DNA of 64,000 nt, taken from positions 768,001 to 832,000 of the forward strand of contig NZ_JAQNDL010000003.1 in the NCBI RefSeq assembly GCF_028368995.1, in the 5' to 3' direction. The translations under genes and the position numbers were made by a program. The notes under the pieces were generated by a model that was not told where the DNA came from, ran no database searches, and worked only from the letters and a program-made list of their open reading frames with translations. Shown here piece by piece: positions 2,823 through 50,100 of the stretch. The stretch comes from Nannocystis bainbridge (GTDB lineage: Bacteria > Myxococcota_A > Polyangia > Nannocystales > Nannocystaceae). Position 1 is the stretch's first letter, and each line of letters opens with the position of its first letter.

Positions 2823-2831
2823 GAGAAGAGG

Positions 2832-12662: not shown

Positions 12663-13954
12663 GCCTCCACCTGCTCGATCCGCAGGGTAAGGAAGTGCGC
12701 CGCGCAGGAGATGCAGGGATCATGATTCCGGATCGCCTGCTCCGCCCGCGCGGTCGCGGCCTTGTGGGACAGCCCTGCTAACACCGGCGCCATCGCCCGC
12801 AGATCGTCTTCGATGCAGCGCTGATTCTGCGAGGTCGGCGGGACGATCTTCGCGTCCGTGATGAGACCGTCGTCACCGATTGAATAGCGGTGGTAAAGAA
12901 TGCCGCGCGGCGCCTCGGTGCACCCATGGCCCAGCCCGGGCGCACATGGGACGTCCTCCGAGGCCACCGTCGGAGGGTCGTACGAGCGCACGAGCCGCGC
13001 CGCCTCGTCAAACGCCTGGATCGTCTCCACAGCGCGCGCCAGGATGCTCTTGAAAGGATTCGTGCATGGCGGGACGAAGCCGACGTCCTCGGCCGCGGCT
13101 CGGGCTCGCGGCGACAGCCGGTCGAAGTTGAGGTTGAAGCGCGAGAGAGGGCCGCAGAGGTAGGCGCCGCGGCCGTTGCGCTGTGACTGCAGCGCGCTCG
13201 AGTGCTGGACGTGCTCTTCCGTGAAGTGGGCGTCGTACTCGTGCGCCGCGATGTCGAGGCCCGCGCTGGAGACGATGCGCCCCTCGTTCATGGGGTACTC
13301 GTCGGGATGACGAAGGGCGACGAATTCATACTCCCTGCGGAAATCGGGGTAGGAGAAGCCGGCTGTCCAGCGCAGGAGAGCCTCGGCAGCGTCGAGGCCC
13401 CACTCGAGCTCGGGGAGCAGCGCCAGCAACTCGGAGCGCGACGGGGCGCGGTAGAAGCCTCCGACCTTGATGTTGATCGGGTGGATCTCGCGGCCACCCA
13501 GCAGGGTCATGATCGCGTTCCCTGCTTTCTTCATCCGCAGTCCGCGCTTGACCTCGTCCGGGTGGGACTTCGCCATGGTGAGCGCGTCGGGAAAGCCGAG
13601 GAAATCGGGGGTGTGCAGCATCACCATGTGCAAGAGGTGGCTCTCGATCCACTCACCGCAGTAGAGCAGGCGCCGGAGGGCCCGCACCGCGGGCTCGACG
13701 CGCAGGCCGTGCGCGGCCTCGATCGCATGACAGGCGCTCATCTGGTATGCGACCGGGCAGATGCCGCAGATCCGGGACGTGATGTCGGGCGCTTCGAGCT
13801 GCGCGCGACCACGCAGGAGCGCCTCGAAGAAGCGCGGCGGCTCGAAGATCCGCAGCTGCACCTCTTCGGCCGTCTCGCCGCGGAGGCGGATGAAGAGCGC
13901 GCCCTCTCCCTCGACGCGGGCGAGATAATCGACCTTGATGGTCCTAGTCGCCAT
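12659..13954 (-). CDS. hydA: Group 3b [NiFe]-hydrogenase large (alpha) subunit
   Basis: ARVEGEG, L1 [11 protein letters not shown]2 DPCISCAAH plus cleavable tail. Confidence 0.95.
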
Positions 13955-14723
13955 GCGACAGCCCCTCCTGGCGGAACGGTCCGGCGTTGGCGTTGAAGGT
14001 GTGGAAATACCGACGCACGCCGCCTTCGCTCACGCCCATCTGCACGAAGCCGCGGGCCAGCGCGGCGGTGTTGGGCGCCTCGGCGGGGCCGTAGCAGCCG
14101 TAACAGCCGCGGATGTAGCTCGGGCAGAGGGCGCCGCAGCCGGCATGGGTCACCGGTCCCATGCAGGGGGTACCGTGGGCCACCATGACGCAGACGGTGC
14201 CGCGCATCTTGCACTCGACGCAGGTGCTGTGCGAGGCGATCGCGGGCCGACGGCCGTGGAGGTATGCGCTCAGCACCTCGAGCAGCTGCCGCTTGTCGAT
14301 CGGACAGCCTCGCAGTTCGAAGTCGACGGGCACGTGTTCGGCGATCGCGGTCGAGGTGGTGAGCGAGTCGATGTAGTCAGGCCGCGCGTACACCACGCGC
14401 AGCATCTCCGCGTGATCCCGGAAGTTGCGCAGCGCCTGGATCCCGCCGGCCGTGGCGCACGCGCCGATGGTCACGAGGGACCGCGAGACGGCCCGCACTC
14501 GCCGGATGCGCTCGGCGTCGTCGGCCGTCGTGATCGACCCCTCGACCAGCGATACTTCGTAGGGGCCGCCCACGTCCGCGCTGGTCGCCTCCCGGAAATA
14601 GGCGATCTGCAGCGCGTCGGCGATCGCCAGGAGCTCATCCTCGCAATCGAGGAGCGTGAGCTGGCAGCCGTCGCAGGAGGCGAACTTCCACACCGCCAGC
14701 TTGGGGCGTCGCTTCCTCGGCAT
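13944..14723 (-). CDS. hydD: Group 3b hydrogenase small (delta) subunit
   Basis: [31 protein letters not shown]. Confidence 0.93.
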
Positions 14724-20125: not shown

Positions 20126-21361
20126 CTACCGATCGGACAGCGTGCCGAGAAAGGCGACGATGTCGCGCTCCTCTGCGGTCGTGAGCCCGAGGTTGCCGAC
20201 CTTGGCGGTCTCGAGATTGTCCGCCACTTCAGGTGCCGGCCAGCACGTGCGCTTCTCCCCTGGATCCCCCGGCGCGCACGTCGGGAGGACGGCGCGCGTG
20301 TTGTAGAAATGGACCATCTCCTCGAGGCTCTTGAAATAGCCGTTGTGCCCGTAGGCCTTGACGAACGACCCGTAGGGCCGCTTGTCGACGTTGCGCAGGG
20401 TCGGGACCTTGTGTTTGCCGTTGTTCTCGGCCGCCAAGCTGGCGTATTCGGGCCGCGTGGCGAGGAAGCTGCCGAGCCCGAGATCGACGAACGCCGCGCC
20501 GAGCGGGTTGACGGCGGGCGGCTGGGTGTAGAACGGATTCTCCGGGTTCTTCGGCGCCCCGAGGTTCGCGTACGTGAAGTCGGTGAACAGCGGCGGCACA
20601 TTGCCGTCGCTCACGATCGCGTGGCAGGTGTCGCAGCCGGCCTTGCCGCGAAACAGGGCGAGGCCGCGGAGCTCCTGGTCGTCGAGCGCTGCCTCGCCTG
20701 CGAGGTACGCGTCGAACCGCGAGCTGAAGGCGCTCATCTCCCGCGATGCTTCGTAGCGCTCGATCGACCGCGCGATGGCGGCGAACGCCGCGTCGACGTC
20801 GTCGCAGATGCCCTGGCCCCAGACCTGGCGCAGCAGCAGCGAATAGCCCGAGTGCGGGCTGCATACTCGCTTCACCACCGCGGCCGCGTCCGGCAGGGCT
20901 TGTTCGAGCGGGTTGAGGAACGGGCCTTGCGCTTGGTCGGCTGCCGGGTTGCCGAGCTTCTCGCCGGTGGCGCGACCGTCCCAGAAGGCACCGCCGACGA
21001 ACTCGCCGTTCTTCTTGTCGCGGTGAAGGATCGGACTGAACGACGCGTACGCGCTGCTCGGTGGTTTGCGGGCGCCGAAGCGACCGGCCACCGATCCCTC
21101 GTAGACGGCACCGTGCATGTCGATGGCCTCGATCGGCCCAGTCCAGCCCACTTCCAGGCCATGGCAGTCACTGCAGTCCTGATTGCCGCGGGCGGACAAC
21201 CTCTCGTCGAAGAAGAGCAACTTTCCCAGTTGCTCCTTGGCGCTGAGCCCGGCCCCGGGCGCGCCGCGTCCGGTTCTGGGCGGATCGGCGAAGACGACCG
21301 TGCTGGCGGCGACGACCAGCACGCCCAATGCGACCGTCCCGGTGAGAGTTAGGCTTCTCAT
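20126..21361 (-). CDS. Di-haem cytochrome c peroxidase (CcP/MauG family)
   Basis: Signal peptide, LGKLLFFDERLS, CSDCH, FWDGRA, CDTCH, KVPTLRNV. Confidence 0.92.
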   Translation of the reverse strand: MRSLTLTGTVALGVLVVAASTVVFADPPRTGRGAPGAGLSAKEQLGKLLFFDERLSARGNQDCSDCHGLEVGWTGPIEAIDMHGAVYEGSVAGRFGARKPPSSAYASFSPILHRDKKNGEFVGGAFWDGRATGEKLGNPAADQAQGPFLNPLEQALPDAAAVVKRVCSPHSGYSLLLRQVWGQGICDDVDAAFAAIARSIERYEASREMSAFSSRFDAYLAGEAALDDQELRGLALFRGKAGCDTCHAIVSDGNVPPLFTDFTYANLGAPKNPENPFYTQPPAVNPLGAAFVDLGLGSFLATRPEYASLAAENNGKHKVPTLRNVDKRPYGSFVKAYGHNGYFKSLEEMVHFYNTRAVLPTCAPGDPGEKRTCWPAPEVADNLETAKVGNLGLTTAEERDIVAFLGTLSDR

Positions 21362-27252: not shown

Positions 27253-27951
27253 TCACTCGCCGCTGGCGTCCGCCTCCGGAGGCCTGCCGCCCTCGTCATC
27301 GACGAGATCCTCGAGATCGTCGGCCGATCGCCCCTGGATCGACGCCAACCACTGGTCGAAATCGCCGAGAGTCGACGCCCTCAGCTCCGGTCTGGCCGCA
27401 AGCTCGGTGATGATCCCGCGCAGCATCTCGCGTCCGCGGCGGAGGCGGCTGCGGACGGTGCCCTCAGGGATCTCGAGCACCTGGGCGATCTCTCGGCTGA
27501 GCAGCCCCTCCCAATAGAAGAGCTCAAGCGCGGTCTGGAGGTCGAGCGGGAGCCGCCGGAGCGCGCGCAGGAGAAGCGCCTGCTCCTCGCTCTCGACGAC
27601 GATCTGGGTGACCGAGAGGTCGAGGTCGGCGACCCGCGAGGCGTGGAGCTCTTCGCCCTCGTCCTTCGGCGCCCAGCGCTCGCGGTACTTGAGCAGGACC
27701 TTCCTGGCGATCGCGAAGAGGAACGTGCGGAAGGAGGCGTCCTGGCGGAAGCGCTCCTTGGCGCTGACGCAACCGAGGAAGGTCTCCTGCACGAGATCGT
27801 CGGCGTCGCGCGGGACCTTGTTGCAGAAGAAGCGGTAGACCGACTCGAAGTGGCGCTCGAAGAGCACCTCGCCGGCGAGCGCGTCGCCTCCTCGCCAGGC
27901 GTCGAGGAGCTCGAGATCCGAGCGCGTCGTCGTCTTGGAAGTGTGAGACAA
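27253..27951 (-). CDS. ECF sigma factor (start approximate)
   Basis: SDLELLDAWRGGD, DADDLVQETF, FRTFLFAIAR, EIAQVLEIPEGTVRSRLRRGR. Confidence 0.92.
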   Translation of the reverse strand: MSHTSKTTTRSDLELLDAWRGGDALAGEVLFERHFESVYRFFCNKVPRDADDLVQETFLGCVSAKERFRQDASFRTFLFAIARKVLLKYRERWAPKDEGEELHASRVADLDLSVTQIVVESEEQALLLRALRRLPLDLQTALELFYWEGLLSREIAQVLEIPEGTVRSRLRRGREMLRGIITELAARPELRASTLGDFDQWLASIQGRSADDLEDLVDDEGGRPPEADASGE

Positions 27952-27999
27952 GGCGCGGATAATCGACGCCAGGCGGGGGAAACGCAACCGGAGCGGTCG

Positions 28000-30900
28000 A
28001 TGGAAGAGAGTCTGCGTTTGCGAGGAATCCGCCTCGACCACGGCGCGATCGAGATCCAGATGGCCCGGAGCCAGGCCCGCGCCCGCCTCTTCGGTCGCCC
28101 GGCCGAGCCGATTCGCCTCGGCCGCTTCGTCGTGCTCCGCCGCGTCGGCAGCGGCGGTATGGGCGTGGTCTACGAGGCGTACGACCCGCAGCTCGATCGC
28201 AAGGTCGCGCTCAAGCTCCTGCGCTCCGACGTCGGGGGGAGCGCCGTGCTCACGTCCCAGTTACGTCTCGACGAGCTCAGCGCCGAGGCCCGGGCGATGG
28301 CCCGCCTGTCCCATCCCAACGTCGTGACCGTCTTCGATGTCGGCGAGGTCGACGGTCGGGTCTACATCGCGATGGAGTACGTCGCGCCACCGACGCTGCG
28401 TGGCTGGCTCGAGGCGGAGCCACGGAGCGTCGCGGCGATCGTCGCGGTGATGCTCGAGGCGGGCGCCGGCCTCGCGGCGGCTCACCGCGCCGGGCTGGTC
28501 CACCGCGACTTCAAGCCGGAGAACGTAGTCGTCCCCAGCGGTGAGCCTGTGCGGGTGATGGATTTCGGCCTCGCCCGCCGCCTCGAGCCGCTGTTCGAAC
28601 GACTCGAGCGCTCCGGCATGAGCGCCCTGGCGACCCGCGAGGGGGTGCTGACGACCCAGCTCGCCGGCACCCCGCTCTACATGGCCCCCGAGCAGTTCCA
28701 TCCCGGGGCGATCGACGTCCGCGCCGATCAGTGGGCGTTCTGCGCGACGCTCTTCGAGGCGCTCCACGGGCGCCCGCCCTTCAGCCTCGGCGAGCGGCTG
28801 CTCGGCTCGGCTCGGCTCCGCCTGCCGACCGAGGCGCGCAGTGGGCCGATCCCCCCGCCGCTCAACGCAGTCCTGCGGCGCGGCCTCAGCTTCGATCCGG
28901 CGCAGCGCTTCGAGTCGATGGACGCGCTCCTCGAGTGCCTGCGACCATCGCGTCGACGGAGCCGCGCGCCGCTCTTGGGGCTCGCCGCGGCCGCGGTCAT
29001 CGCTGCGGTCACGGCCGGGCTCCTCGGCGCCCGGCCGCCCGTCGCCGACCCATGCCCTGCCCGTGAGGACAGGCTCCGCGCGGCCTGGAGCGAGGCCGAC
29101 GCCGCCCAGCTCCACGCCCGCTTCGCCGAGTCCGGCCTCGCCTACGCCGCGACGAGCGCGGAGCGGACCGCGGCCCTCTTCGACCGTTACGGCGAGGAGT
29201 GGATCGCCGCCGAACGTTTGGTCTGCCTCCTCGGCCGCAGCGGCGCCGAAGCGCGGGTGAGCGAGCGCGGCGCCTGCCTCGACGAGCGCCTCGAGGCCCT
29301 GGCGGTCACTCGCGACGAGCTCCTCGAGGGCGCAGCGGGGGATCTGCCGCTGACGGTCGAGCGGTCGGTGTCGCTGGCTACCCGACTGCCCCCGATCCGC
29401 GGCTGCGAGCAGGCGCAGCTCGTCCCGACCACCGATCCCCTCGACCGCCAGGCGCGGCGGCGGCTGTCTCGTCACGCGAGTCGAGCGCGCGCGCGCGTCC
29501 AGGCCCGCCGCCTCGACGCCGCCGAGGCGGCGCTCGTCGAGGCACGAGCCGACGGCGGCAGCGACCACCCCGAGAGCGAGGCCGTCCTCGCGCTGCTCGA
29601 GGCTGAGCTCGCGCTCCTGCGAGCGCAGCCCGAGCGGGCGCACGAGCGCCTCGATCGAGTGATCGAGGTCGCGGGTCGGGAACGCCTGGTCGACCTCGTC
29701 GCCGAGGCGGCCGTGATGCAGGCCGAGGTCGAGGCCGGCCTGCGGGTGAACGCCAGCGTCGCTCGCGACATCCTCCGCGTCGCCCGCGTGGCCCTGGCCG
29801 TCTCCGATCCCGGGCCTCAAGCGCGGGGCCGTCTCGAGCTGGTCCAGGCCCGCGTGGAGTACGACAGCAGCCACTTCGAGGCGGGGCGGCGGGCGACCGA
29901 GGCGGCGATCGAGGCGTTCACCGAGGCCGGCGCTCGCGGCCGTCTCAAGCTCAGCGAGGGACTGCAGATGCTGGCGATCCAGACCTTCGGCGCCGGCGAG
30001 TACGAGCAGGCCCGCGCCTTCGCAGAGCAGTCCGAGGGCTTGCAGCTCGAGCTCCTCGGCGCGTCCCACCCCGACCTCGCCAAGACGGCCCTGGTCCTCG
30101 GCGCCGTCGATCTCGTCGACGGCCGCGGCGAGCGGGCCGTCGCCCAATTCCGCCGCGCCGCCGCTCTCCAGGCCGAGAGCCTGGGTAGCGAACACCCGCA
30201 CGTCGCGCAGACCTTGATCAACCTCGGCAACGCCTACCTCGAGCTCGGCGAGCACGCGGCCGCCCTCGCGGAGTACGAGCGCGCCCTTGCGATCTTGCAG
30301 CCGGTGCTCGGGCGCGACGATCCCAGAGTCCTCGCTTGCCTCGCCAATATCGGCGGTAGCCACCGCGGCCTCGGCGAGGCGTCCCGGGCCGAGGCGGTCT
30401 TCCGCGAGGTCATCGTTCGCAGCCGCGGCCTCGGAGAGCCGGGTGCCGCGACTCTCTCCCTGGCGCTCGGCAACCTCGCCCGCGCGCTCCATGATCAAGG
30501 CCGCTTCGCCGAGGCCGAGGACACCTACGAAGAGGCGCTGGTCCTCCGCCGCTCGGTCTTCGGCGACGAGCACCCGAAGACCGCCGCGCTCTACGACGAT
30601 CTCGGCCGGTTCTACATCGACACCGGCCGCTACCGGGACGCGACGCCGCTGATCGAGCGCGGCAAGGCGATCCGGTCCGCCAGCTTCGGCGCCCACCACG
30701 TCGAGTACGCACGCAGCGAGGTGAGCCTTGGCCTCCTCGACCTCGCCCGGGGCCGCAGCGACGAGGCGATCGATCGCATCGACCGCGCCCTCGATCGGCT
30801 CGAGCGCGACGGCCGGGCCGAAGCCCGGGGCGACGCCCGCTTGAACCTCGCACGCGCCCTCAGCCAGCGCGGCCACCCCGGGGACCTCGAGCGCGCCCGC

Positions 30901-31002
30901 GCTCTGATCGCCCGCTGCCGCGAGGGCCCCGCGGGCGCGCCTTACGTCGCCGAGCTCGCGGCCTGGTGCGCCTCGCTAGGCGGCAGGGCCCCTTGCGACT
31001 GA
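28000..31002 (+). CDS. Ser/Thr protein kinase with TM and C-terminal TPR array
   Basis: GSGGMGVV, VALK, HRDFKPEN, DFG, GTPLYMAPE; LGxEHP TPR repeats. Confidence 0.95.
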   Translation: MEESLRLRGIRLDHGAIEIQMARSQARARLFGRPAEPIRLGRFVVLRRVGSGGMGVVYEAYDPQLDRKVALKLLRSDVGGSAVLTSQLRLDELSAEARAMARLSHPNVVTVFDVGEVDGRVYIAMEYVAPPTLRGWLEAEPRSVAAIVAVMLEAGAGLAAAHRAGLVHRDFKPENVVVPSGEPVRVMDFGLARRLEPLFERLERSGMSALATREGVLTTQLAGTPLYMAPEQFHPGAIDVRADQWAFCATLFEALHGRPPFSLGERLLGSARLRLPTEARSGPIPPPLNAVLRRGLSFDPAQRFESMDALLECLRPSRRRSRAPLLGLAAAAVIAAVTAGLLGARPPVADPCPAREDRLRAAWSEADAAQLHARFAESGLAYAATSAERTAALFDRYGEEWIAAERLVCLLGRSGAEARVSERGACLDERLEALAVTRDELLEGAAGDLPLTVERSVSLATRLPPIRGCEQAQLVPTTDPLDRQARRRLSRHASRARARVQARRLDAAEAALVEARADGGSDHPESEAVLALLEAELALLRAQPERAHERLDRVIEVAGRERLVDLVAEAAVMQAEVEAGLRVNASVARDILRVARVALAVSDPGPQARGRLELVQARVEYDSSHFEAGRRATEAAIEAFTEAGARGRLKLSEGLQMLAIQTFGAGEYEQARAFAEQSEGLQLELLGASHPDLAKTALVLGAVDLVDGRGERAVAQFRRAAALQAESLGSEHPHVAQTLINLGNAYLELGEHAAALAEYERALAILQPVLGRDDPRVLACLANIGGSHRGLGEASRAEAVFREVIVRSRGLGEPGAATLSLALGNLARALHDQGRFAEAEDTYEEALVLRRSVFGDEHPKTAALYDDLGRFYIDTGRYRDATPLIERGKAIRSASFGAHHVEYARSEVSLGLLDLARGRSDEAIDRIDRALDRLERDGRAEARGDARLNLARALSQRGHPGDLERARALIARCREGPAGAPYVAELAAWCASLGGRAPCD

Positions 31003-32150
31003 ACGCGGGCGACGAGCACGCGACCGAGCGGGCTGCTGCCGATCCGCGCCACCACGTGCTCGATCAGCGGCCGCGCCACAGGGCAGGCAAAGCGGTGCGG
31101 TGCCTCGGGGGGGGCGTCGACCCGCTCGCTCGGAACCGCCTCGCCGAGATGGAGGCGGCTGCAAGCCTGACTGAAAGGACAGCTCTCGCAGGCGCCCATA
31201 CGCTCGCTGCGGGCGGCGAGGGTGCGGGCGTAAGCCGGAGCGGCAAAGCTGGCGACCGCACCAGGCTCGAAGAAATTGCCGATCCGTCCGGCGGGCGTGT
31301 AGCTGTCGCCGTAGGTATAGGTCTCGCCGTCGGTGTCGACCACCAGCGCCCACTCGCCGCGGCTCGGATCGTAGGCGAGGCCGGGCTCGCCGCGAAGGTA
31401 CCTGAGCGCCGTCCACACGTACTGGTCGATCGGCTCGACCGTGATCCTCCGCGGAGACGCCATCACCCGCTCTGCGAGCCGCAGCATCGCCTCGCGGACC
31501 TGGTCTTGGCGCAAGCCGAGGCCGTGGCAGCGACCCGCGCCCGCGTCGAAATCGAGGATCGGCAGGAGGCGGAAGTCGACGCCCTGCGCGTACCAGAAGT
31601 CGAAGATCGCGTCGACACGCGCGAGGTTGCCGCGGTGGAGGACGCTGATCCCGCCGAAGGGCACCCCCGCCGCGCGCAGACGCTCGAAGTTGCGGAGCAC
31701 CGCCTCGTGGCGCTCGCGGCCGGTGATGTCGACCCGGGCGCCGCCGACGACGTCGTGAGAGACGCCGACACCGACGCGGGTCTCGCGGAGCATCGCCAGG
31801 CTCGCCTCCGACAGGCGGACAAGGTTGGTCTGGAGCTCGACCCGGGTGCGCAGCGGCTCTCCGGCGAAGATCTCGTCGCGGAGCTCGAGGAGCTCGCGGA
31901 CCAGCGCCGGCGGCAGGAGCAGCGGCTCGCCGCCGTGAAGCACGAGGTGGAGGACCCGGGGCTGCGCCGGCAGCGTCCGCGCGTAGTCGCGGATGTTGAG
32001 GAAGAGCTGGCGAAGCTGCGCCGGCTCCATCCGCGCGGGATCTCCGAGCTGGTCGTACTCAAAGCAGTACTCGCAGCGCAGGTTGCAGAGCTTGGACAGC
32101 TTGATCACCACGTGGAGATGGTGCGTGGATGGGGCACGGCGCGCGTTCAT
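30942..32150 (-). CDS. Radical SAM protein with SPASM-like C-terminus (anSME/peptide-maturase-like)
   Basis: CNLRCEYC, HGGEPLL, QTN, CESCPFSQAC...C. Confidence 0.9.
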   Translation of the reverse strand: MNARRAPSTHHLHVVIKLSKLCNLRCEYCFEYDQLGDPARMEPAQLRQLFLNIRDYARTLPAQPRVLHLVLHGGEPLLLPPALVRELLELRDEIFAGEPLRTRVELQTNLVRLSEASLAMLRETRVGVGVSHDVVGGARVDITGRERHEAVLRNFERLRAAGVPFGGISVLHRGNLARVDAIFDFWYAQGVDFRLLPILDFDAGAGRCHGLGLRQDQVREAMLRLAERVMASPRRITVEPIDQYVWTALRYLRGEPGLAYDPSRGEWALVVDTDGETYTYGDSYTPAGRIGNFFEPGAVASFAAPAYARTLAARSERMGACESCPFSQACSRLHLGEAVPSERVDAPPEAPHRFACPVARPLIEHVVARIGSSPLGRVLVARVQSQGALPPSEAHQAASSAT

Positions 32151-32171
32151 CCGTCTACTCCTGGACCGCCG

Positions 32172-32741
32172 CTAGCACTCCACCCACACACCGGGCTGCG
32201 GCTGGCACATCGACCAGACGCTCACCTCGCCGTTGCCGGACAACCCCTCGCCCCAGATGGAGCCGATCAGGCCGCCTGCCCCGATCTCGGCGATGATTCC
32301 GTCCGGGAACACGTAGAAGCCCTGCGGCGCCGGGAGCACCTCGCCCTCGCCGGAGACGAGGATGGTGATCTGGCGGTCGCGGAGGATGGTCGCGTCGTAG
32401 GCGCTGGAGAGCTCGAAGAGAGAGACGAACTTCTCGACTCCCTCGGGCAGCTTGACCTCGTGCTTCTTGAGGAAGTGGATGACCTCCTTCTCGTAGCCGG
32501 AATGGATCGTGGTCTTGCACTCGTTCGGCTCGCCGGCGTGGGCGGTGCTGACGATCGCCGAGCCGAGCGAGCTCAAGAGATGATCGGCGACACCCGGCAT
32601 CGAAGCGATGCAGAGGGCCGAGGCCGCGATGAACAGCACCTTGGGCCCCTGGGAGGGGCCATTCGTGGCGGTGCGAAGCGTCAGCGCGCTCGACTTCGGG
32701 TCAGAGGGATTGTTGAATCGGTAGGTCTCGTTGTTGTGCAT
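32172..32741 (-). CDS. Putative exported protein and candidate radical SAM substrate
   Basis: Hydrophobic segment ending STAHA; C-terminus WGEG..WSMCQPQPGVWVEC; 21 bp from the rSAM start. Confidence 0.65.
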   Translation of the reverse strand: MHNNETYRFNNPSDPKSSALTLRTATNGPSQGPKVLFIAASALCIASMPGVADHLLSSLGSAIVSTAHAGEPNECKTTIHSGYEKEVIHFLKKHEVKLPEGVEKFVSLFELSSAYDATILRDRQITILVSGEGEVLPAPQGFYVFPDGIIAEIGAGGLIGSIWGEGLSGNGEVSVWSMCQPQPGVWVEC

Positions 32742-33059
32742 GGCTTCGTCCGCGCCGAGGTCGGCTCGGCGCTCCGGTCGGGTAGTCCGGCAAAGGCCCG
32801 CCGTGATCACGGCCTCGACATTTTTTTCTGCGCGCGGATGGGACCTGTCGCCGACCGCTCCCGACGCACACGGACACCCGACCGCGGCCGCCTCGCGGTG
32901 GCGCTGCTCGGGGTCGGCAAATTCGACCGCGGGCGCCCGCCCTTGCACAGCGCCCGAACAAGAGCACGCAGCGCAGGTTCATGACGGCGGACAAACAGAG
33001 CGCCGCCGTCCTGCTCGTGGCGGCGCGTCCCCGCGAGCGTTCGCGCGGCGACGACCCAC

Positions 33060-33331
33060 CGCGAGGCCGATGTCCTGGTGCTCGACGAGCCGACCGCCGC
33101 GCTCGATATCGACGCCGAGGCTGAGCTGTTCGCGCGCGTGCGCGAGCTCGCCGCCGCCGCACGGTCCTCCTGATCTCGCACCGCTTCGCCAACGTGCGCA
33201 TCGCCGATCGAATCGTCGTGCTTGCGGCCAGTGGCGTCGTCGAGCAGGGCGATCACACCCGCCTGATGGCCGCCGACGGCGTCTACGCGGCGATGTTCTG
33301 CAAGCAGGCCCGCGGCTACGCGCCGGGCTGA
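33060..33331 (+). pseudogene. ABC transporter ATPase C-terminal remnant
   Basis: VLVLDEPTAALD, ISHRF..ADRIVVL, EQGDHTRLMAADGVYA, with frameshifts. Confidence 0.8.
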
Positions 33332-33434
33332 CGCTGCGTCGTCGGGCGGCATCGCGCGACGCGACGTGCATGTCCGCAGGCATAGAGGCGGGGCTCGCCG
33401 CATGCGTGACGGGCCGCGGGGGTAGGCTGGGGCT

Positions 33435-33884
33435 GTGCATCGCGCATACGCCACGTTTCGCCTGGCGGATGGCACCCAACGCTCGCTCGCTCCCGGCGAG
33501 CTGATCGGGAGGCTGTGGAGCGCCGGGCTGCAGATCGACGATCCGCGGGTGTCCGAGGGACACGCGATGCTAAGCCTGCGCGGCGGCGACTTGTGGCTTG
33601 GCGCTGCGACGGCGGCTCGCAGTCGGCGAGCGCAGCGTCGCCGAGGTGTGGCTCGAGCCGGGGCTGTGCATTGCCCTGGCGCAGGGGCTGGAGATCATGG
33701 TCGAGGCGGTCGAGCTGCCGGCGGAGGCGCTAGCCCCAGGGTTGCCACCACCGTGTTGCTCGGAATGTGCTCGCTGCAGGTACGCCCGCAGGTGCAGCTG
33801 TTCGCCCGTCACGAGCCCGACGCCCGTGCCGGATCTGGGACACCTGCGACGGCTGGCGCAGGGCCCAGGCATGCACCCTCGATG
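33435..33884 (+). pseudogene. FHA-domain protein remnant
   Basis: LIGRLWSAGLQIDDPRVSEGHA (GR..S..H), then frameshifts. Confidence 0.65.
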
Positions 33885-34019
33885 AGGTGGCCCCGAAGTA
33901 GTCGCGGACGGCGGCCTCCGCGAATAGACGCTTCCGACAGATCCGTGATCGTCGATCGTCGCGGTCTCCACGAACTGCTGTTGCGGCGTCGGATCGACCC
34001 CGCGCGGGCCAGCCGAGGT

Positions 34020-34352
34020 CTATCCGCTGAGGGGGAGCGGAGCGAACGGGGCGACCGACCGCCCCCCACCGTCCTTGGGCGGGTCGCTCCCCTCCGAGAG
34101 ATCTTCCGGGGCCTCCTTCGGGAAGCAGACCCCGCCGTAAGGCTCATTTTTGTACTTACAGTATTCACCCTTGAGACATTCCTCGTCCTTGAAGCACCCC
34201 GGAATTGGACCGAACCTCGCGCTCTCCTCGTCTCCGGGATCCGCCTGGACACCCACCGCTTGCTCGCTCTCAAATTCTTCGGACTCGCAGCCGGCACCGA
34301 CGAACCCCAAGAAGCACCCCAGCACCACCAGTTTTCTTGAAAAGCTATTCAT
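34020..34352 (-). CDS. Small Cys-rich lipoprotein
   Basis: FVGAGC lipobox; CFKDEECLKGEYC..GVC; lower GC. Confidence 0.65.
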   Translation of the reverse strand: MNSFSRKLVVLGCFLGFVGAGCESEEFESEQAVGVQADPGDEESARFGPIPGCFKDEECLKGEYCKYKNEPYGGVCFPKEAPEDLSEGSDPPKDGGGRSVAPFAPLPLSG

Positions 34353-34780: not shown

Positions 34781-36895
34781 TCAGCGCCACGAACCAGGAG
34801 GGCCCCGCGCGCCCAGCGAGCCGAGGACCCAGGGGCCGGACGGCGTCGCCGGTGCCAAGCACAAGTCGAAGTTGCCGTGGGCCCAGTCGTGCTCGCTGCG
34901 GTCGTCGCCGTCATGCCCCGCGCCTGCCGGGATCTGGAACCAGTCCAGGCTCGGGCGAGTGGGCCAGAACCATCGCGGCCCCGTGAGGAAGCCGGCGGCC
35001 TCAAGGTTGGCAGGCGGCTCGCCGCCCCGGAACTGCACCCGGAGTCGCCGCCGGTCCTCCGCCTCGGCGAAGTCGGTCGACTCGTGCAACTCGAGCAGAG
35101 ACACCATGACCGGCTCGCGCAAGTCGAGAGCTCCGGTCAGCCCGATCGCTGGGGCAGCGCCGACACTCGCATCCACCTCACCTGGCCCGTCTGCGGGAGG
35201 ACGATCGCCCTCGTCACGGACGACCGGGGCGCTGGCCGCCCCCGCGGTGACGTCGACTCGCTCAGGTTCAGCGGGCCTTCCGATCCGCTCCTCGCGCGCC
35301 CGCTCTGCGGCAGGTTCGAGCGGCTGAGAAACACTTTGAGGGTGAAGATGGACGAGCTCGCGGAGAACAGTCCCCAGCCGCTTGCGAACCGCGATGACTT
35401 GGGCACGGTCGCTAGCGGGCGCGGCCTCCCAGGCCCTCAGGATGGCGGCCAGCGCCAACAGGGGAGCCAGCGGCGACGAAGCCAGCTGGGCGACGGTTGC
35501 GGCATCACCTTCAGACAGGGAAGCGGCGTTCTCTGCGGCCACCGCAGTCAAGGCTTCCGCCGAGGCCTTGTGATGAGCAGCGCTTACCTGCTCGAGTGTC
35601 CCCAAGGCCTCGACAACACCCGCGTCCTGATCTTGGTGCGGACTGCCGGCGGACGTCCCGCCTACCCATGGCGAGCTCGGCGTCTTCGAGTGTGCCGGTG
35701 GCGTCGCCTCGGCGTTTTCCGCCAAAACCTCGCCGGTGGCCGACGCGGGGAAGCGGAACGGGATCGGCGTCTCCTCGAGCAGCCGGCGATGGAGCGCGGT
35801 CGACGGATCGTTCAGGCCGACGAGGTGGATGTGCCAAATCCGTTCCCCTTCATCTCGGGTGACGAGGCAAGTCCCCGCCGCGCGCAGCAAGTTGAGCGTG
35901 TCCGCCAGCGCCTCGAGCGTGATCTCGAACGACGGGTCGTGTCGCTGGACCGCGCCGCGGAGCACGCCCGTCAGCCCGACGAGGTCGTCGGAGCCCTTGA
36001 GGCTGCACTGAAACAGAGCGCGCAGTAGCCGGGGGAGGTACTTCTTACCCTTGAGCCTCCTGGGCCTGCATGGCTCCTGGACGCGCCGGGTGCCCTGCTC
36101 GAACCGCCGGCGCACCGGCTCGGAGCGCAGCGCCATCGCCCGGTGCTCGAGGCCCTTGAAGCAGCGCCAGACCACGTCCGGGATCGAGGGTCCGCCCATC
36201 ACGTCAGTCGGCAGGCCGTGGACGATCCGCAGGTAGCGAGCCCGCGTGGCCGCCGAGACGCGCACGTGGTCGGGCACGGGTGACGGCTTCGAGCCGCTCG
36301 AGGCCGTCCTGACCCGCTGGAAGCTGCGCATGCGATCGACGAGCACTTCGCGGAGATCGAGCGGCGCCTTGATATCGAGGACGACCCGGCGCTGGCCCTC
36401 GACAAGAACGACCGCGACCTGCCGGCCGAGCGACACTAACAGGATCGTGTTGGACTCCTGCTCCGCCACGCCGACAAGGAAGCGTCCGTGCGTTGGCTTG
36501 AAGTACCGGCGCTGGTCGTCACCGAGACGAACCACGGGCGGCGGCAACTGGTGCGGATCGACGCTGTCACGGATCCGCGCCCAGGTCGCCTTCACATCCG
36601 CGAGCTCGCCGACCACCAGCGGCGTGACGAACTGACCGGCTTCTCCGACGTACGAGGCGTGCCAGTGCACCTCGTCGGACGGCGCCCCGCAGAAATGCAC
36701 TTCTCCTCCTGAAGGCCAGGCGAACCTGAAGCGCTGCACCTGGGTTTCCAGATGGTTCACAGAGGCAGCCGTCTCGTCGACCAAGATCGATAGCCGCTCG
36801 CCCGCAGAGTACGCCTCGTACTCCGCGAACGCCTGGTCGATCGCCCAGTCGTCAGACCCCCCTTCCGCTGCCCTCACGTCCCCTCGCACTGTCAC
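34781..36895 (-). CDS. Hypothetical 704-aa protein, divergent from the element operon
   Basis: Long ORF with natural composition; no motif recognised. Confidence 0.6.
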   Translation of the reverse strand: MTVRGDVRAAEGGSDDWAIDQAFAEYEAYSAGERLSILVDETAASVNHLETQVQRFRFAWPSGGEVHFCGAPSDEVHWHASYVGEAGQFVTPLVVGELADVKATWARIRDSVDPHQLPPPVVRLGDDQRRYFKPTHGRFLVGVAEQESNTILLVSLGRQVAVVLVEGQRRVVLDIKAPLDLREVLVDRMRSFQRVRTASSGSKPSPVPDHVRVSAATRARYLRIVHGLPTDVMGGPSIPDVVWRCFKGLEHRAMALRSEPVRRRFEQGTRRVQEPCRPRRLKGKKYLPRLLRALFQCSLKGSDDLVGLTGVLRGAVQRHDPSFEITLEALADTLNLLRAAGTCLVTRDEGERIWHIHLVGLNDPSTALHRRLLEETPIPFRFPASATGEVLAENAEATPPAHSKTPSSPWVGGTSAGSPHQDQDAGVVEALGTLEQVSAAHHKASAEALTAVAAENAASLSEGDAATVAQLASSPLAPLLALAAILRAWEAAPASDRAQVIAVRKRLGTVLRELVHLHPQSVSQPLEPAAERAREERIGRPAEPERVDVTAGAASAPVVRDEGDRPPADGPGEVDASVGAAPAIGLTGALDLREPVMVSLLELHESTDFAEAEDRRRLRVQFRGGEPPANLEAAGFLTGPRWFWPTRPSLDWFQIPAGAGHDGDDRSEHDWAHGNFDLCLAPATPSGPWVLGSLGARGPPGSWR

Positions 36896-47125: not shown

Positions 47126-50100
47126 ATGACCCCCGCTGCCATCCTCGACAAGCTTCTGCCCCGCTGGCGCACCAAGCTGTCGCCGAACTACTCGCCCGAG
47201 TACATCGACGGCTTCATTCAACGCAACCGCCCCATGCTCGAGGCCGTCGTCGCGCGCACGATGATGCTGCGCCGAATCAAGCGGGGCGACCCGCCCAAGA
47301 CAGTCGACGAGTTCGCGGTCTACGCGAAGCTCGTCGCGCGCGAGCGGCCGAAGGACGCGGAGCCCGACGCCGCCGTGGTCAAGCGCGTGCTGAAGCGCAT
47401 GGATAAGATGCTCGCCCGCAAGGGGGATCCGGCCGGCCAGGAAGCCGCGGGCGCATTCGGCGTCGAGTACGCCGAGCTTCGCGCCGAGGCGATTCTCCTG
47501 CGACGGGCCGGCTGGGATGCGGTCCCGCTGCTCCTACGCCGACCCTCGCTGGCGCTCTTCTCCGCCGGCTCGGTCGTCGTCGTTCGCGACGCCCAGAAGT
47601 CGCTGCACTTCTTCCCTGGCCTTGAGGATAGCGGGGAGAAGATCCGCGCCGATGTGGCGGAGGTGCAGAGGCGTGTCCTGCAGCTCCGTGACGGCATCGT
47701 CGACGCCGCCCGCTTCGATCGCTACGCCATGGCTCTGTGGACGCGCGCCCGCGCCGGTGGCACCTCGGCCACCCCCTCGCGCGAGATCGAGACCCCGCCC
47801 GACCTGCGCGACAAGTCGTGGCGCACCGAGGCCAACCTCCAGGCGATGCGCCTCGTGCTGTCCAAAGAGCCAGGCGAGCTCACCGCCGAGGACCTCCAGG
47901 CCCTCGCGCAATATTCGGGCTGGGGCGGCCTGTCGATCGACAGCGTCAAGAAGATGCTCCCGCCCGAGCTCGTCCCCGAGTCCTTCGGCCTGATCCACGA
48001 GTATTACACCCCCACGGCGATCACCGAGTCGATCGCCGAGGCCTTGTGCTCCCTGCTGCCCGAGCTTGCCGGCAACGACGGCATCGTCCGAGCACTGGAA
48101 CCCAGCGCGGGCGTCGGTCGCCTGATCCGCGCGTTCAGCCCGCGCCGCTGCCTCGCGCTCGAGGCCGGCGGCCAGATCAAGAAGATCGCCTGGACGGCCG
48201 TCGAGTTCTCCAAGGTCAGCTCAACGCTGCTCCGCGCGCTGCGCCCTGACGTCGACCTCTACCACCTGCCCTTCGAGCGCTGGGTCCGCGACGAGGGCCC
48301 CCGCTATCAGGGCACCTTCGGCCTCATCGTCTCCAACCCGCCCTACGGCGAGCGCGGCGCGATGGCCCGCGAGGACCCCGACGAGTTTTACAAGGAGAAG
48401 CGCGCCTTCGCATACTTCATGCGACGCGCGCTCGACCTCCTGGTCCCGGGTGGTGTCGGCGTGTTCCTGATCCCCGCCGGCTTCATGAGCGGCAACCTCA
48501 ATCGCAACCTGCGCGAGAAGCTGCTGCGCCGCCATCACCTGCTCGGAGCCTTCCGCCTGCCGAGTCACGATCGCAAGGGGCGCGAGACGGTGCCCGGTGC
48601 GTCGGTCGTGATGGACGTCGTCTTCTGGCGCAGCCGCGGCGGCGAGCTGACCGAGGTCGACCCTGCCGATGACTTCATCCTCGACGGCGACTACTTCAAA
48701 CATCACCCGGACCACGTCCTCGGAAAGGAGGACGGCTCATTTGCCGGGGACGACGAGGCCGGCATGGCGCGGAGCTGGCGCTACAAGGTCACAGGCGACT
48801 TCAAGGGTCTGCCTCCGATCGAGCCGCGGCCCGTCTGCACCGCCTGCGTGCTCACGTCGATCGTGCAGCGCGACGATGTCGGTACATTTCAAACGGTCGC
48901 GCGCGAGGACGATGGCATCCCCGCCGACGTCGACGAAGATTTGCGCCCGGCGCTCGAGCTCGGCCGCCGCGTCGGCCGCTACCTCGTCGCTGTCGGCGCC
49001 GACGAGGCCGACAGGGCCGCGCAGCTCTGGCCCGAGCTCCACACTGCGCTCCGCGACTTCTCCACGAGCTTCGGGAACCCCTGGCGCTCCAAGCCCCTGC
49101 GCGAGCTCGCCGAGGGCCGCCGCAAGCTCGCCACGGCCCAGCAGGTCCTCAACGCCTTCGAGAAGACCGGCAGCGTCGTCCCCGCGCTGCGGGAGGCGCC
49201 GGCGGTCGCGCCGAAGTTCTCCGGCCAGCCCGACGATGTCATCGCCCAGGCCGAGGGGCTCTTTCGCCAGCAGCGCGCCCTGACCGTCGCGCAGCTCATG
49301 AGCTTCCATCAGCGCCAGGGCGGCACGCTCTCGACCGAAGCCACCCTCGCGGCTCTCCTCGCTGCCGGCTGGAACCTCGACGGCGACGCATGGGATCAGC
49401 TCCTCCCGAGCGACGCCTACCTGACGGGCAACGATCTGTGGGAGCGCCACGACCGCGCCGTCGAGCGCGCCCGTCGCGGCGACGAGCAGGCCAAGGTGCA
49501 GGCTCGCCGGTTGCTCGAGGCGATCAAGCCCGCTGTCTTCGATGACCTCACCGACATCAGCCCCCAGCACGGCTACGTCCCGCTGGACCTCGTCGCCGGC
49601 TGGATCTCCGCGACGTTGAACGGCCGCTACGGCGCCATCGAGCTCGAACGCAAGGGCGGCTTCGTGCAGGTCCGCGGTCACGATTACACAGCCGAGAACC
49701 TGCCCCCGATGGCGCCGGAGACCCTCGCGTTCCTTGGCTACTACAATCACGACCCCGAGCTCTTCCGGCCGCCGCAGGAGAAGCGGGAGCGCGACGCTGG
49801 GCCTACGAGCCGCGAGGATCGGGCCGCCAAGAAGCAGAGCCTCGCCGAGCGACGGCTGGCCCTGGCGAAGAAGTGGGACGAGTCGTTCAGGGCGTGGGTC
49901 GCCGCCGACGAAGCCCGACGTGAGCAGCTCGTCCACGCCTACAACCGAATCGCGCGCGGCCGCGTCGTCCCGACGTTCTCGCCCGAGCCCCTCGACATCG
50001 TCCGCTGGGGCTCGCACGCGCCGAAGCTCAAGCCGCACCAGATCGCCGGCGCACGCCGCGTGCTCGCGCAGCGTGGCGGCCTCGTCGCCTTCGACGTCGG

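Follow-up and report, generated by a model that had tools for sequence, protein, structure and literature searches.

A radical SAM enzyme encoded beside an export-type protein with a conserved Trp tail in Nannocystis bainbridge: a candidate protein-sized cross-linking system

Most of what is known of radical SAM cross-linking concerns short peptides, which dedicated machinery excises and secretes. What does such an enzyme modify, and how, when the gene directly ahead of its own encodes a protein of 189 residues with an export-type N-terminus? The question is raised by a locus of Nannocystis bainbridge, whose genus is that of a predatory soil bacterium, within the 64,000-nucleotide stretch of contig NZ_JAQNDL010000003.1 that was analyzed here (positions 768,001 to 832,000; the window). 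An earlier note had described a 189-aa ORF with a hydrophobic segment ending in A-H-A and a C-terminal Trp/Cys tail, 21 bp ahead of a radical SAM gene, and the ORF list and the sequence confirmed each of these points. The reading that we favor, at a probability of about 0.5, is that the enzyme would close a triceptide-like C-C ring from an aromatic residue to a side chain, and not a Trp-Cys link.

The two-gene cassette and its upstream protein

The features of the cassette are as follows.

32172..32741, minus: gene of the upstream protein, the candidate substrate (precursor), 189 aa plus stop (ORF list, GC3 profile, 19 homologues)
32640..32741, minus: conserved charged N-terminal region, residues 1-34 (alignments A1 and A2)
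32535..32639, minus: hydrophobic export-type segment, residues 35-69 (hydropathy; A-x-A conservation)
32175..32516, minus: predicted mature domain, residues 76-189 (AlphaFold2 model with alignment A5)
32175..32258, minus: C-terminal Trp tail, residues 162-189, candidate modification site (sequence; homologue conservation)
32255-32253, 32216-32214, and 32210-32208, minus: W163, W176, and M178 of the Trp tail (sequence)
32207-32205, 32186-32184, and 32177-32175, minus: C179, W186, and C189 of the Trp tail (sequence)
32151..32171, minus: intergenic spacer of 21 nt with a Shine-Dalgarno-like AGGAG at 32162-32158 (sequence)
30942..32150, minus: radical SAM enzyme gene, 402 aa plus stop (PF04055, NCBIfam sub-threshold matches, ORF list)
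32064..32087, minus: CxxxCxxC motif (C22, C26, C29), present in 54 of 55 family members
31923..31937, minus: H-G-G-E-P motif, residues 72-76 (55-sequence family alignment)
31083..31190, minus: four conserved C-terminal Cys, C321-x2-C324-x5-C330 ... C356 (55 of 55 sequences)

The gene of the upstream protein comes first and the radical SAM gene second, the stop codon of the former (32172-32174) being followed after the spacer by the enzyme ATG at 32150, with the AGGAG sitting 7 nt ahead of it. At its 3' end the enzyme gene shares 61 nt with the end of a convergent kinase ORF (27643..31002, plus strand), and the genes flanking the cassette encode a Ser/Thr kinase with TPR repeats and an ECF sigma factor. 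GC3 is 0.88 to 0.96 over both genes and drops to 0.78 to 0.70 immediately upstream of 32741; a promoter and terminator scan gave nothing above chance, and a search of sequencing runs listed no RNA run holding the sequence, the best share of words being 0.16. The locus is best explained as a self-contained two-gene operon in which the enzyme gene is translationally well placed. The upstream gene is single-copy, with one match in its own 11-Mb genome.

The minus-strand frame of the upstream gene covers 32172..32948 in the table-11 ORF list, and the in-frame ATG at 32741 gives the 189-aa protein. We found 19 homologues, 17 of them full-length (58 to 78% identity), and 18 sequences reach the C-terminus. 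Because the same Met starts every one of the 17 full-length homologues, the 189-aa start is favored over a 258-aa GTG start. Preceded by basic residues, the hydrophobic core (residues 35-46) lies in the segment with the strongest 12-residue hydropathy of the ORF (2.71) and is followed by an amphipathic stretch ending in T-A-H-A, with A-H-A at residues 67-69. All 17 aligned sequences retain the A-x-A site, and A69 does not vary even among distant relatives. With 34 residues ahead of the core and 18 between the core and A-x-A, the export signal is atypical; cleavage by signal peptidase is possible after residue 47 or after residue 69, and residues 1-34 may serve as a signal-peptide n-region, an enzyme recognition sequence, or both. 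The protein probably leaves the cytoplasm.

Six tail residues, W163, W176, M178, C179, W186, and C189, are invariant in all 17 full-length homologues, and W-[S/A]-M-C and W-x-x-C are both present in the 18 sequences that reach the C-terminus, so that the tail picked out by the earlier note is no product of chance. The three tail Trp are the only Trp of the 189-aa protein, all within the last 28 residues, and the only Trp after the T-A-x-A site in 15 of 18 homologues; W176 is the sole Trp retained in a wider 9-sequence alignment. The most conserved site of the subfamily is W176-x-Met, not W-x-Glu/Gln. At position X3 of the W163 triplet, Glu or Gln is found in 12 of 18 homologues, and at that of W186 Glu or Gln (9/18), Asp or Asn (8/18), or Pro (1/18). 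The residues following C179 are Q/R-P/T/V/A-x-P/G.

The mature 114-residue domain (residues 76-189, alignment A5) is predicted to adopt a compact alpha/beta fold, the AlphaFold2 model reaching a mean pLDDT of 89.0 and a pTM of 0.82 on an alignment of only 22 rows. This model puts W176 and W186 in a beta-hairpin of the folded domain, not in a free tail, and the enzyme would therefore need to act before folding. A Foldseek search of the PDB gave no match for the model at E≤0.001, and in a VIA-align comparison with 48,161 chains the best Z was 3.1 and 20 chains reached Z≥2; the lack of a solved look-alike does not prove that the predicted fold is new. Prediction of the full-length protein was poor (pLDDT 45.6), and its fold matches, which involve the N-terminal helices only (Z<4), are meaningless. 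Neither Pfam nor NCBIfam returned anything for the protein, none of the 17 homologues has any Pfam family at E≤5, and the ESM Atlas yielded no usable feature match and structure matches of TM≤0.36. An assignment of the central domain to PF18998 (InlB B-repeat / Flg_new_2) was rejected, there being no Pfam match; the sole link to that family is a weak match between the A2 profile and multi-repeat proteins, with a summed E of 1.9e-7 for 12 repeats.

An uncurated clade of radical SAM enzymes

The CxxxCxxC motif of radical SAM enzymes is the site of the SAM-cleaving [4Fe-4S] cluster. The window's enzyme belongs to the radical SAM superfamily (PF04055, 57.5 bits against a cut-off of 29.5, residues 18-184), with no RRE-type N-terminal extension before the radical SAM core. 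In the H-G-G-E-P motif G73, G74, and E75 are invariant, and H72 and P76 are kept in at least 90% of 55 family sequences. R194 is nearly invariant and might, as a guess, read an acidic X3; the specificity residue of HtkB/HaaB is D214/H204 (PMC11499958).

The enzyme passes no curated NCBIfam cut-off. Its best match is DynA (NF041298, 94.1 bits against 450), followed by the anaerobic sulfatase maturase (TIGR03942, 78.4 against 349.45); other matches include AmcB (68.7; cut-off 425), YhhB (67.9; 445), FxsB (67.1; 370), GrrM/OscB (56.6; 310), QhpD (TIGR03906, 37.8; 453), PapB (34.5), and XyeB (32.9; 450). DynA is the best NCBIfam match for 55 of 55 clade members, none of which comes near the cut-offs of the triceptide synthases; the nearest curated families of all 55 are DynA, sulfatase maturase, AmcB, DarW, and YhhB. 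The best explanation places the enzyme in an uncurated clade whose relatives are the cyclophane-forming maturases DynA, DarE/DarW, AmcB, YhhB, FxsB, and GrrM/OscB and, in addition, the anaerobic sulfatase maturase. The clade comprises at least 117 protein clusters from myxobacteria, cyanobacteria, actinobacteria, and proteobacteria. A family HMM gave at least 285 bits for the own-type and 10 metagenome loci and at most 173 bits for all other radical SAM loci. In one source a fragment of the family carries the label “sulfatase maturation enzyme AslB.”

Among solved structures, a sulfatase maturase (4K36) comes nearest at 133 bits, and next is the triceptide synthase ChlB at 101 bits. In the alignment with 4K36, the four C-terminal Cys of the enzyme fall on C317, C320, C326, and C348, which we take to be cysteines of auxiliary cluster II, and the positions of C330 (4K36 numbering) and the upstream Cys residues, presumably those of auxiliary cluster I, are non-Cys. 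All four Cys aligned with auxiliary cluster I are absent from 55 of 55 clade members, and these sequences hold no further conserved C-terminal Cys column. We read the four conserved C-terminal Cys as a single candidate auxiliary Fe−S cluster site. The earlier note had called the enzyme an HGGEP-type radical SAM/SPASM protein; the first half of this label stands, while at the C-terminus the SPASM domain is incomplete, since only 4 of the usual 7 Cys are present. The SPASM pattern (an upstream C...G....C pair, Cx2Cx5Cx3C, and a final C) does not occur in the enzyme, and PF13186 was not reported for it at E≤0.01. PF13186 is precomputed for some cyanobacterial clade members.

Pairing with upstream proteins and the candidate chemistry

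In every case with readable context the enzyme is paired with a small protein. The same neighbor lies upstream in L001/L085 and L002, and a homologous one precedes the 39%-identical enzyme at L004; three further protein pairs are linked circumstantially, by contigs of matching length, among them P0140 with the 46%-identical enzyme P0030. We compared 15 neighbor proteins, the window's own and those of L004-L013, L086, L087, L088, and L091. Apart from the L004 homologue, the 14 others are unrelated to the window's protein, and several of the 15 are related to one another. An N-terminal hydrophobic segment of Sec or Tat type is found in 10 of the 15, the window's own included, and 3 carry a twin-arginine motif of the [S/T]-R-R-x-F-L type; D-R-R-T-V-L occurs in a distant precursor relative, P0139. 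In a maximum-likelihood tree the enzyme clades match the neighbor classes, with support of 100/100 for the own type with L085 and L004, 100/100 for L010-L012, and 87/94 for four loci with “T-F-T-E-x-Q-P.” The neighbor is very probably the substrate of the enzyme, and in this respect the proposal of an unusually large, export-type substrate has gained from the comparison. No conserved partner gene, such as a protease or a transporter, was found at 13 family loci. The genes there vary between loci: two have ABC-2 transporters and one a caspase-like protein, and kinases are among the rest.

We think it likely that the modified site lies in the Trp tail. In the last 60 residues of the 15 neighbors, Glu or Gln stands at +2 of 31 of 81 aromatics, against 9.7 ± 2.7 in shuffled sequences, a count reached by 0 of 20,000 shuffles; at other offsets, 4 to 15 of 79 to 84 aromatics have Glu or Gln. 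The motif was chosen after the sequences had been inspected, and because several neighbors are mutually related the shuffle test overstates their independence. W-x-E/Q accounts for 14 of the 22 Trp triplets, and the aromatic residue is exchanged with the spacing kept (W-H-E/W-P-E in L007 and F-H-E/F-T-D in L086; W-A-E in L005 and Y-V-Q in L009). This enrichment, together with the 10 of 15 neighbors that have no Cys after the hydrophobic segment, argues for a triceptide-like ring over a Trp-Cys link. The Trp cyclophane option of the earlier note thereby gains comparative support, the nearest curated relatives being mostly cyclophane-forming, all far below cut-off. Three-residue aromatic-X-X rings are established chemistry of such enzymes (PMC11499958 and PMC11002830, as excerpted).

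By analogy, the substrate would be a pre-protein consisting of a charged N-terminus, an export-type hydrophobic segment, and a compact domain of ~115 residues with its Trp in the last 28. In the cytoplasm the enzyme would reductively cleave SAM, and the 5'-deoxyadenosyl radical would take a side-chain hydrogen, most likely from the C-beta two positions after Trp, at W176-x-M178, at W186-x-E/D/N/Q188, or perhaps at W163-G-x165. Attack of the carbon radical on the indole ring, one-electron oxidation, and deprotonation would give a three-residue cyclophane, each ring lowering the mass by 2 Da. The three invariant Trp would probably be cross-linked before export, and the stapled protein would then be exported (by a Sec-type route here and a Tat-type route in several relatives) and its signal removed. 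C179 and C189 would most likely form an extracytoplasmic disulfide outside the radical reaction, and the end product would be a small, rigidified extracytoplasmic protein.

Among the alternatives, a different and possibly new radical chemistry at the same site of the same substrate survives best, although we regard it as unlikely. It might be a C-O-C ether (as with DarE), a C-N link (dynobactin), epimerization, or beta-hydroxylation or desaturation after Trp. In SuiB, auxiliary cluster I was proposed to oxidize the cross-linked radical intermediate (PMC10114670, as excerpted); without this cluster, ring closure would need another electron acceptor, or the chemistry differs, and its loss in 55 of 55 clade members might accompany a reaction that is redox-neutral or differs in some other way. 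The best curated matches, DynA and DarW/DarE, form not just C-C but also C-N and C-O links (according to the part of PMC10288494 consulted), and Glu, Gln, and Met lie outside the X3 set of characterized triceptides (Arg, Asn, Asp, Ser, Ala, and Lys in the excerpts of PMC11499958, PMC12912966, and PMC11002830). However, the strict i/i+2 aromatic-E/Q spacing is the signature of three-residue rings, and no specific alternative has positive support. AmcB is named a cyclophane former, not a SPASM protein, by NCBIfam, which hints that full SPASM clusters are perhaps not obligatory.

A cross-link that depends on Cys is doubtful. C179, C189, or both would be joined to a nearby side chain, either through a thioether of the NxxcB or QhpD kind to Trp, Met, or the acidic or amide residue 188, or as a Trp-Cys link within W-x-x-C. 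The invariance of W-x-M-C and W-x-x-C in the subfamily favors such a link, as does the recurrence of W-C-M-C in the distant relatives P0139 and P0140, and 11 of 17 full-length homologues have three Cys, an odd number, in the mature protein, so that one Cys may stand outside a disulfide. The thioether-forming PapB and QhpD are among the weaker sub-threshold matches, and QhpD, which modifies a protein-sized substrate that is later exported, provides a precedent. They score below the cyclophane families, however, and the Cys-free neighbors imply that the common chemistry of the clade cannot need Cys; moreover, the homologous neighbor at L004 has C-C-W-K-D-W in place of W-x-x-C, with Cys before Trp, and in P0142 Cys is 5 to 6 residues away from Trp. 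A Trp-Cys cross-link at W-x-x-C, the other option of the earlier note, is thus disfavored as the family chemistry. That note had also looked to the ORFs upstream of related enzymes for a C-terminal W/W-x-x-C; the motif is kept in 18 of 18 own-type sequences, but other clade neighbors differ.

It is very improbable that the adjacency is incidental or regulatory and that the enzyme acts elsewhere, for example as a sulfatase-maturase-like activator, beside an unrelated secreted or membrane protein: sulfatase maturase is the second-best curated match and the closest solved structure, and the AslB label points the same way, but the score is far under the cut-off, the neighbor has no C/S-x-P/A-x-R site (on these two grounds the sulfatase-maturase reading was rejected), the same aromatic spacing occurs in small upstream proteins of unrelated lineages with enzyme clades tracking their type, and the spacer is just 21 nt.

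A more far-reaching reading is offered tentatively and is rather unlikely as a whole. It would make the clade a distinct maturase branch that has lost auxiliary cluster I and installs an undescribed cross-link as a permanent staple in Sec/Tat-exported folded proteins, not in excised peptides, with the Nannocystis protein the first of a new fold whose C-terminal hairpin is locked before export. Such a link might, for example, run from Trp to a side-chain carbon of Met, Glu, or Gln, or be non-oxidative.

Comparison with known systems

Stapled-peptide chemistry would probably extend to a protein-sized substrate here. Were the favored reading true, the same enzyme type would be paired with protein-sized substrates that use general export routes, in a new enzyme clade and on a new substrate motif, aromatic-x-Glu/Gln/Met. 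Its minimal cluster complement would inform what auxiliary clusters are for, and genome mining would have to consider signal-peptide proteins, not just short ORFs, beside orphan radical SAM genes. The system is compact and easily testable in E. coli.

As in the triceptide systems (XncB, OscB/GrrM, MscB/FxsB, YhhB, HaaB, HtkB, ChlB, MicB), the enzyme is encoded directly after its proposed substrate, which has conserved aromatic-X-X triplets near the C-terminus (three invariant Trp triplets here), and triceptide synthases are among its nearest curated families and, with ChlB, its second-nearest solved structure. The enzyme differs in passing none of their curated models and in belonging to a clade with one auxiliary-cluster Cys set, not two. 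Its X3 residues also differ (Glu, Gln, or Met), as does the proposed substrate, a 189-aa pre-protein with an export-type N-terminus, a predicted folded 114-residue domain, and no conserved protease at 13 loci, whereas in characterized triceptides the product is a short peptide excised by proteases (PMC12912966, as excerpted).

DynA, DarE, and DarW likewise act on Trp motifs with i/i+2 spacing, though on short peptides, and the score against DynA is far below cut-off. DynA and sulfatase maturase resemble the enzyme in having no N-terminal extension before the radical SAM core, whereas alignment offsets show that the N-terminal extension of DarE, ~60 residues long, is absent here. The sulfatase maturase 4K36 has the same Cx2Cx5C...C cysteines and, as proposed for the enzyme here, acts on a protein-sized substrate before export, but the upstream protein has no sulfatase motif, and the Cys aligned with auxiliary cluster I are missing from the enzyme.

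In the cytoplasm, the radical SAM/SPASM enzyme QhpD introduces cross-links into a small protein subunit that then works in the periplasm; this subunit, QhpC of quinohemoprotein amine dehydrogenase, carries a Cys-Trp-derived cofactor. The proposed cross-linking of a protein-sized substrate in the cytoplasm before extracytoplasmic function is similar, but the score is low (37.8 against 453 bits) and the clade substrates mostly have no Cys; no dehydrogenase, protease, or flavoprotein genes were found near the cassette. NxxcB makes a beta-thioether in N-x-x-C motifs. The residue-x-x-Cys spacing is alike, but no Asn is at the first position here, and the lack of Cys across the clade speaks against a common chemistry. 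NxxcB is named as a known family in the excerpt of PMC11851443.

A full-text literature search gave no paper that deals with a radical SAM RiPP of Nannocystis and, in the literature searched, no description of a cyclophane synthase with a signal-peptide substrate; the clade may figure as an uncharacterized network cluster in the 2022 triceptide landscape paper or in the supplements of PMC11499958 and PMC10288494. The bufferins, modified by a multinuclear iron oxidase (MNIO) and not by a radical SAM enzyme, and on Cys and not on Trp, share the long precursor, the general export signal, the predicted small-protein fold, and the minimal cassette (PMC11626156, as excerpted). According to their authors, Sec-signal precursors are rare among bacterial RiPPs (same excerpt).

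A minus-strand gene pair and its radical SAM clade

The gene pair, present as a single copy in the host genome (11.05 Mb, ~69% GC), encodes a putative protein substrate with a Trp-rich tail and a radical SAM enzyme. The 189-aa ORF that the earlier note had placed ahead of the radical SAM gene was confirmed to the base.

Features of the gene pair
32948 to 32172, minus strand: open frame containing the substrate gene in the ORF list, beginning with GTG
32741 to 32172, minus strand: substrate, 189 aa from an in-frame ATG, stop codon at 32174-32172
32150..30942, minus strand: radical SAM enzyme, 402 aa, separated from the substrate stop by 21 nt

The Met equivalent to 32741 is the start in all 17 full-length substrate homologues, and GC at the third codon position is 0.88 to 0.96 across both genes and 0.78 to 0.70 just upstream of 32741. 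An AGGAG lies inside the 21-nt spacer, 7 nt ahead of the radical SAM ATG.

Pfam recognizes only PF04055 in the enzyme, and the 46 families matched in NCBIfam release 20 all score far below their cut-offs.

Highest NCBIfam scores of the enzyme, with family cut-offs (bits)
DynA: 94.1, cut-off 450
Sulfatase maturase: 78.4, cut-off 349
DarW: 71.5, cut-off 650
AmcB: 68.7, cut-off 425
YhhB: 67.9, cut-off 445
FxsB: 67.1, cut-off 370
DarE: 63.4, cut-off 650
GrrM/OscB: 56.6, cut-off 310

A protein search in which 8,000 candidates were scored gave at least 117 clusters of enzyme relatives at E ≤ 1e-10. Among the matches listed, nine full-length clusters are 69 to 89% identical to the enzyme and the remainder, from cyanobacteria (Rivularia, Cyanobacterium stanieri), Myxococcales, Solirubrobacterales, and Ruegeria, are 28 to 46% identical. 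DynA is the best NCBIfam match for all 55 aligned members (best E-value 1.4e-46, none near the cut-off). Judged by these sequence comparisons, the enzyme is a member of an uncurated clade, of which no description was found in the literature and which may figure as an uncharacterised network cluster in supplements.

The only conserved Cys columns in the 55-sequence alignment are C22/C26/C29 (54 of 55) and C321/C324/C330/C356 (55 of 55). In a profile alignment with the sulfatase maturase structure 4K36, the latter four fall on C317, C320, C326, and C348, and the positions of 4K36 C330 and of the cysteines upstream are occupied by other residues in the clade. The 2013 structure paper reportedly assigns C317/C320/C326/C348 to auxiliary cluster II and C255/C261/C276/C330 to cluster I. 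By this assignment the whole clade, with no Cys at the presumed cluster I ligands, appears to have lost auxiliary cluster I, which is unusual; the Cys pattern would provide for two 4Fe-4S clusters instead of three. A review (PMC10114670) describes a proposal that in SuiB the cross-linked radical is oxidised by cluster I.

A metagenome scan for the enzyme yielded 330 relatives, with 80 loci kept; 10 of these (L004 to L013) score 285 to 501 bits with the clade HMM and all other loci at most 173 bits. Loci L085 to L088 and L091 were added through genome searches. At each of these loci the enzyme gene is directly preceded by an ORF of 100 to 230 aa in the same orientation, and no further gene is conserved around the pair in the 13 family loci compared. 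These upstream neighbours are of several unrelated types.

Neighbour types by locus
Window's type: L001/L085, L002; domain-level homologue at L004
Ending in aromatic-x-E/Q-S/T-T-aromatic-x-E/Q-I/V-Q-P: L005, L009, L087, L091
Twin-arginine type ending in W-A/S/T-E-I/V: L010, L011; L012, without a clear N-terminus
Repeat type: L007 (G-G-G-x-x-W-H-E-M-W-P-E), L086 (G-G-x-D-F-H-E-D-F-T-D)
Six-fold Tyr-x-Gln repeat: L088
Three others: L006, L008, L013

The L088 neighbour (genome G072, 2717-3109, minus strand) is the most repetitive substrate found, ending in six consecutive Tyr-x-Gln triplets and then Cys-rich residues.

Patterns were counted in 15 proteins, the window's own and 14 neighbours, with L001/L085 and L002/L089 left out as near-copies. 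A hydrophobic N-terminal segment is present in 10 of them and an S/T-R-R-x-F-L-type motif in 3. The earlier note had proposed checking whether upstream ORFs conserve a C-terminal W or WxxC; 10 of the 15 proteins have no Cys after the hydrophobic segment. Within the last 60 aa, Glu or Gln stands at +2 of an aromatic residue in 31 of 81 cases, against 9.7 ± 2.7 in composition-preserving shuffles (0 of 20,000 reach 31) and 4 to 15 of 79 to 84 at the other offsets from -3 to +4, for a motif that was chosen after viewing the sequences and in a set whose related neighbours are not independent.

In a maximum-likelihood tree of 16 enzymes and 2 outgroups, the enzymes group by neighbour type: the window's enzyme with L085 and L004 (support 100/100), L010 to L012 (100/100), the four Q-P-type loci (87/94), and L007 with L086 and L008 (89/92). 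At the sequence level the tree shows a stable pairing of enzyme and neighbour, which is not proof of co-evolution because kin share labels.

The substrate family and its predicted fold

Searched by word index, 5.8 billion protein clusters gave 262 candidates, of which 19 are substrate homologues at E ≤ 0.01, all 147 to 199 aa long and one named as from Nannocystis exedens. The family is small, since exhaustive profile searching of 1.84 billion representatives turned up just 11 relatives at E ≤ 0.001. All 17 full-length members, which are 58 to 78% identical to the window's protein, share W163, W176, M178, C179, W186, C189, and C75. W-S/A-M-C and W-x-x-C are present in all 18 of the 19 aligned sequences that reach the tail (residues 162 to 189), and in 15 of these 18 the three tail Trp residues are the sole Trp after the T-A-x-A site.

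More distant relatives are the proteins P0139, with a twin-arginine-type N-terminus (D-R-R-T-V-L), P0140, and P0142, a protein of two to three repeats (hhalign probability 91%). They have in common a hydrophobic N-terminus, an A-x-A site, a P-A-P-x-G-x-Y core, and one Trp. A nine-sequence alignment that includes the L004 neighbour leaves only M1, A69, P137, A138, G141, Y143, and W176 invariant; as the sole invariant Trp, W176 is the leading candidate for modification. The Cys at +3 of W176 is not shared by all relatives (C-C-W-K-D-W in L004; W-I-L-E or W-E-L-V in P0142). The central P-A-P-x-G-x-Y-x-F-P-D segment of the family has a weak match to the repeats in large surface proteins of the "divergent InlB B-repeat" kind (P0141, P0143), and may be very remotely related to that repeat.

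Hydrophobicity in the ORF peaks at residues 35 to 46 (mean hydropathy 2.71), which are preceded by basic residues and followed by an amphipathic stretch ending in a conserved T-A-H-A. By the -3/-1 rule the N-terminus resembles a signal peptide, and the substrate is likely exported. The signal-like region is long, with 34 residues before the core and 18 between the core and A-x-A; cleavage after residue 47 is possible as an alternative to cleavage after residue 69.

Modelled at full length, the substrate gave a poor prediction (pLDDT 45.6). Residues 76 to 189 modelled alone from a shallow, 22-row alignment reached a mean pLDDT of 89.0 and a pTM of 0.82, with two helices and eight strands and with W176 and W186 in the last two strands. 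From this model the substrate looks like a small folded protein and not a disordered peptide. The predicted fold is possibly undescribed so far: Foldseek found no PDB match to it at E ≤ 0.001, and an exhaustive VIA-align search gave a best Z of 3.1.

Possible chemistry on the Trp tail

In triceptides, radical SAM enzymes bond an aromatic ring to the C-beta of residue i+2 (PMC11499958), and the consulted parts of PMC11002830 and PMC12912966 describe the same bond. A fixed side chain two positions after an aromatic residue (i/i+2) is the hallmark of this class. We give a probability of roughly 0.5 to a ring closing at Trp-x-X triplets in the substrate tail, where W176-x-M is the most conserved triplet and W186-x-E/D/N/Q the best fit to the clade pattern. 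In the window's protein the candidate triplets read W163-G-E, W176-S-M, and W186-V-E. This reading is favoured because the nearest curated relatives of the enzyme are largely cyclophane formers, because aromatics interchange at fixed spacing in related neighbours, and because most substrates lack Cys. Of the two products suggested in the earlier note, a Trp cyclophane or a Trp-Cys crosslink, the same points favour the former and not the latter. Our confidence is held at this level because the clade appears to lack cluster I, because Met, Glu, and Gln are absent at the third triplet position from the triceptides in the consulted parts of PMC11499958, PMC11002830, and PMC12912966, and because the predicted fold buries the tail motifs in a hairpin.

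The strongest alternative, though an unlikely one, is that this tail site undergoes some other radical reaction. A Cys-dependent thioether in the tail is somewhat less probable still, since most clade substrates lack Cys. Incidental adjacency of the enzyme and the upstream protein is very improbable. If ring closure does occur, it would take place in the cytoplasm and be followed by export, after which two invariant Cys would more likely be joined as a disulfide.

The cassette would work like triceptide systems, but its enzyme lies outside the characterised families, and the short excised precursor and full SPASM domain of those systems contrast with its substrate and enzyme. In the QhpD/QhpC and sulfatase maturase systems a protein-sized substrate is modified before its export, as proposed here. 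Bufferins have a general export signal, as the cassette's substrate probably does, and differ in enzyme class; in PMC11626156 their authors call such a signal rare among bacterial RiPPs.

Distribution and genomic setting

The clade is patchily distributed. Of 72 further genomes from the order or family, 6 have a match at E ≤ 1e-40, and one of these (G053) scores 144 bits, below the clade range. Within the genus, 1 genome out of 10 others carries a clade member, and in a phylum sample of 400 genomes, with only 4 candidates scored per genome, 1 has a match at E ≤ 1e-70. Nannocystaceae genomes carry members of four enzyme sub-clades with differing neighbour types, and these are therefore accessory cassettes.

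The closest named relatives at the locus are Nannocystis pusilla Na p29 and an uncultured Nannocystis. In N. pusilla (L002, 3400-5193), the substrate and radical SAM genes are each split over two to three frames, P0138 being such a fragment; the splitting reflects either decay of this copy or indel errors in the assembly.

Other features of the window
12659-14723, minus strand: NiFe hydrogenase large and small subunit genes (PF00374, PF01058)
20126-21361, minus strand: di-haem cytochrome c peroxidase, MauG/CCP family
27253-31002, convergent to the cassette: Ser/Thr protein kinase with a long TPR region; an ECF-type sigma factor gene lies beyond, minus strand
33050-33331, plus strand: C-terminal remnant of an ABC-transporter ATPase
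34020-34352, minus strand: 110-aa lipoprotein-like Cys-rich ORF; weak Dickkopf_N match (E 0.0011, below cut-off)
34781-36895, minus strand: 704-aa ORF without a Pfam or NCBIfam match
47126-55354, plus strand: single 2,742-aa ORF with an Eco57I-type methylase domain and SNF2/ResIII helicase domains

The kinase and sigma factor genes are syntenic in N. pusilla. In L001/L085 they are not, and a histidine kinase gene is located downstream of the cassette there. Coding signal is weak across 32760-34000. The ABC remnant is spread over two frames, one with a Walker-B-like LVLDEPT and the other with the last ~60 residues and a stop at 33331; it lacks the N-terminal part, whose position would overlap the cassette, and the cassette may have replaced or disrupted the transporter gene. 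MauG makes a Trp-Trp quinone cofactor; the peroxidase gene is 10 kb away from the cassette, to which no connection was found. The 2,742-aa ORF appears to encode a giant enzyme of the restriction or defence type.
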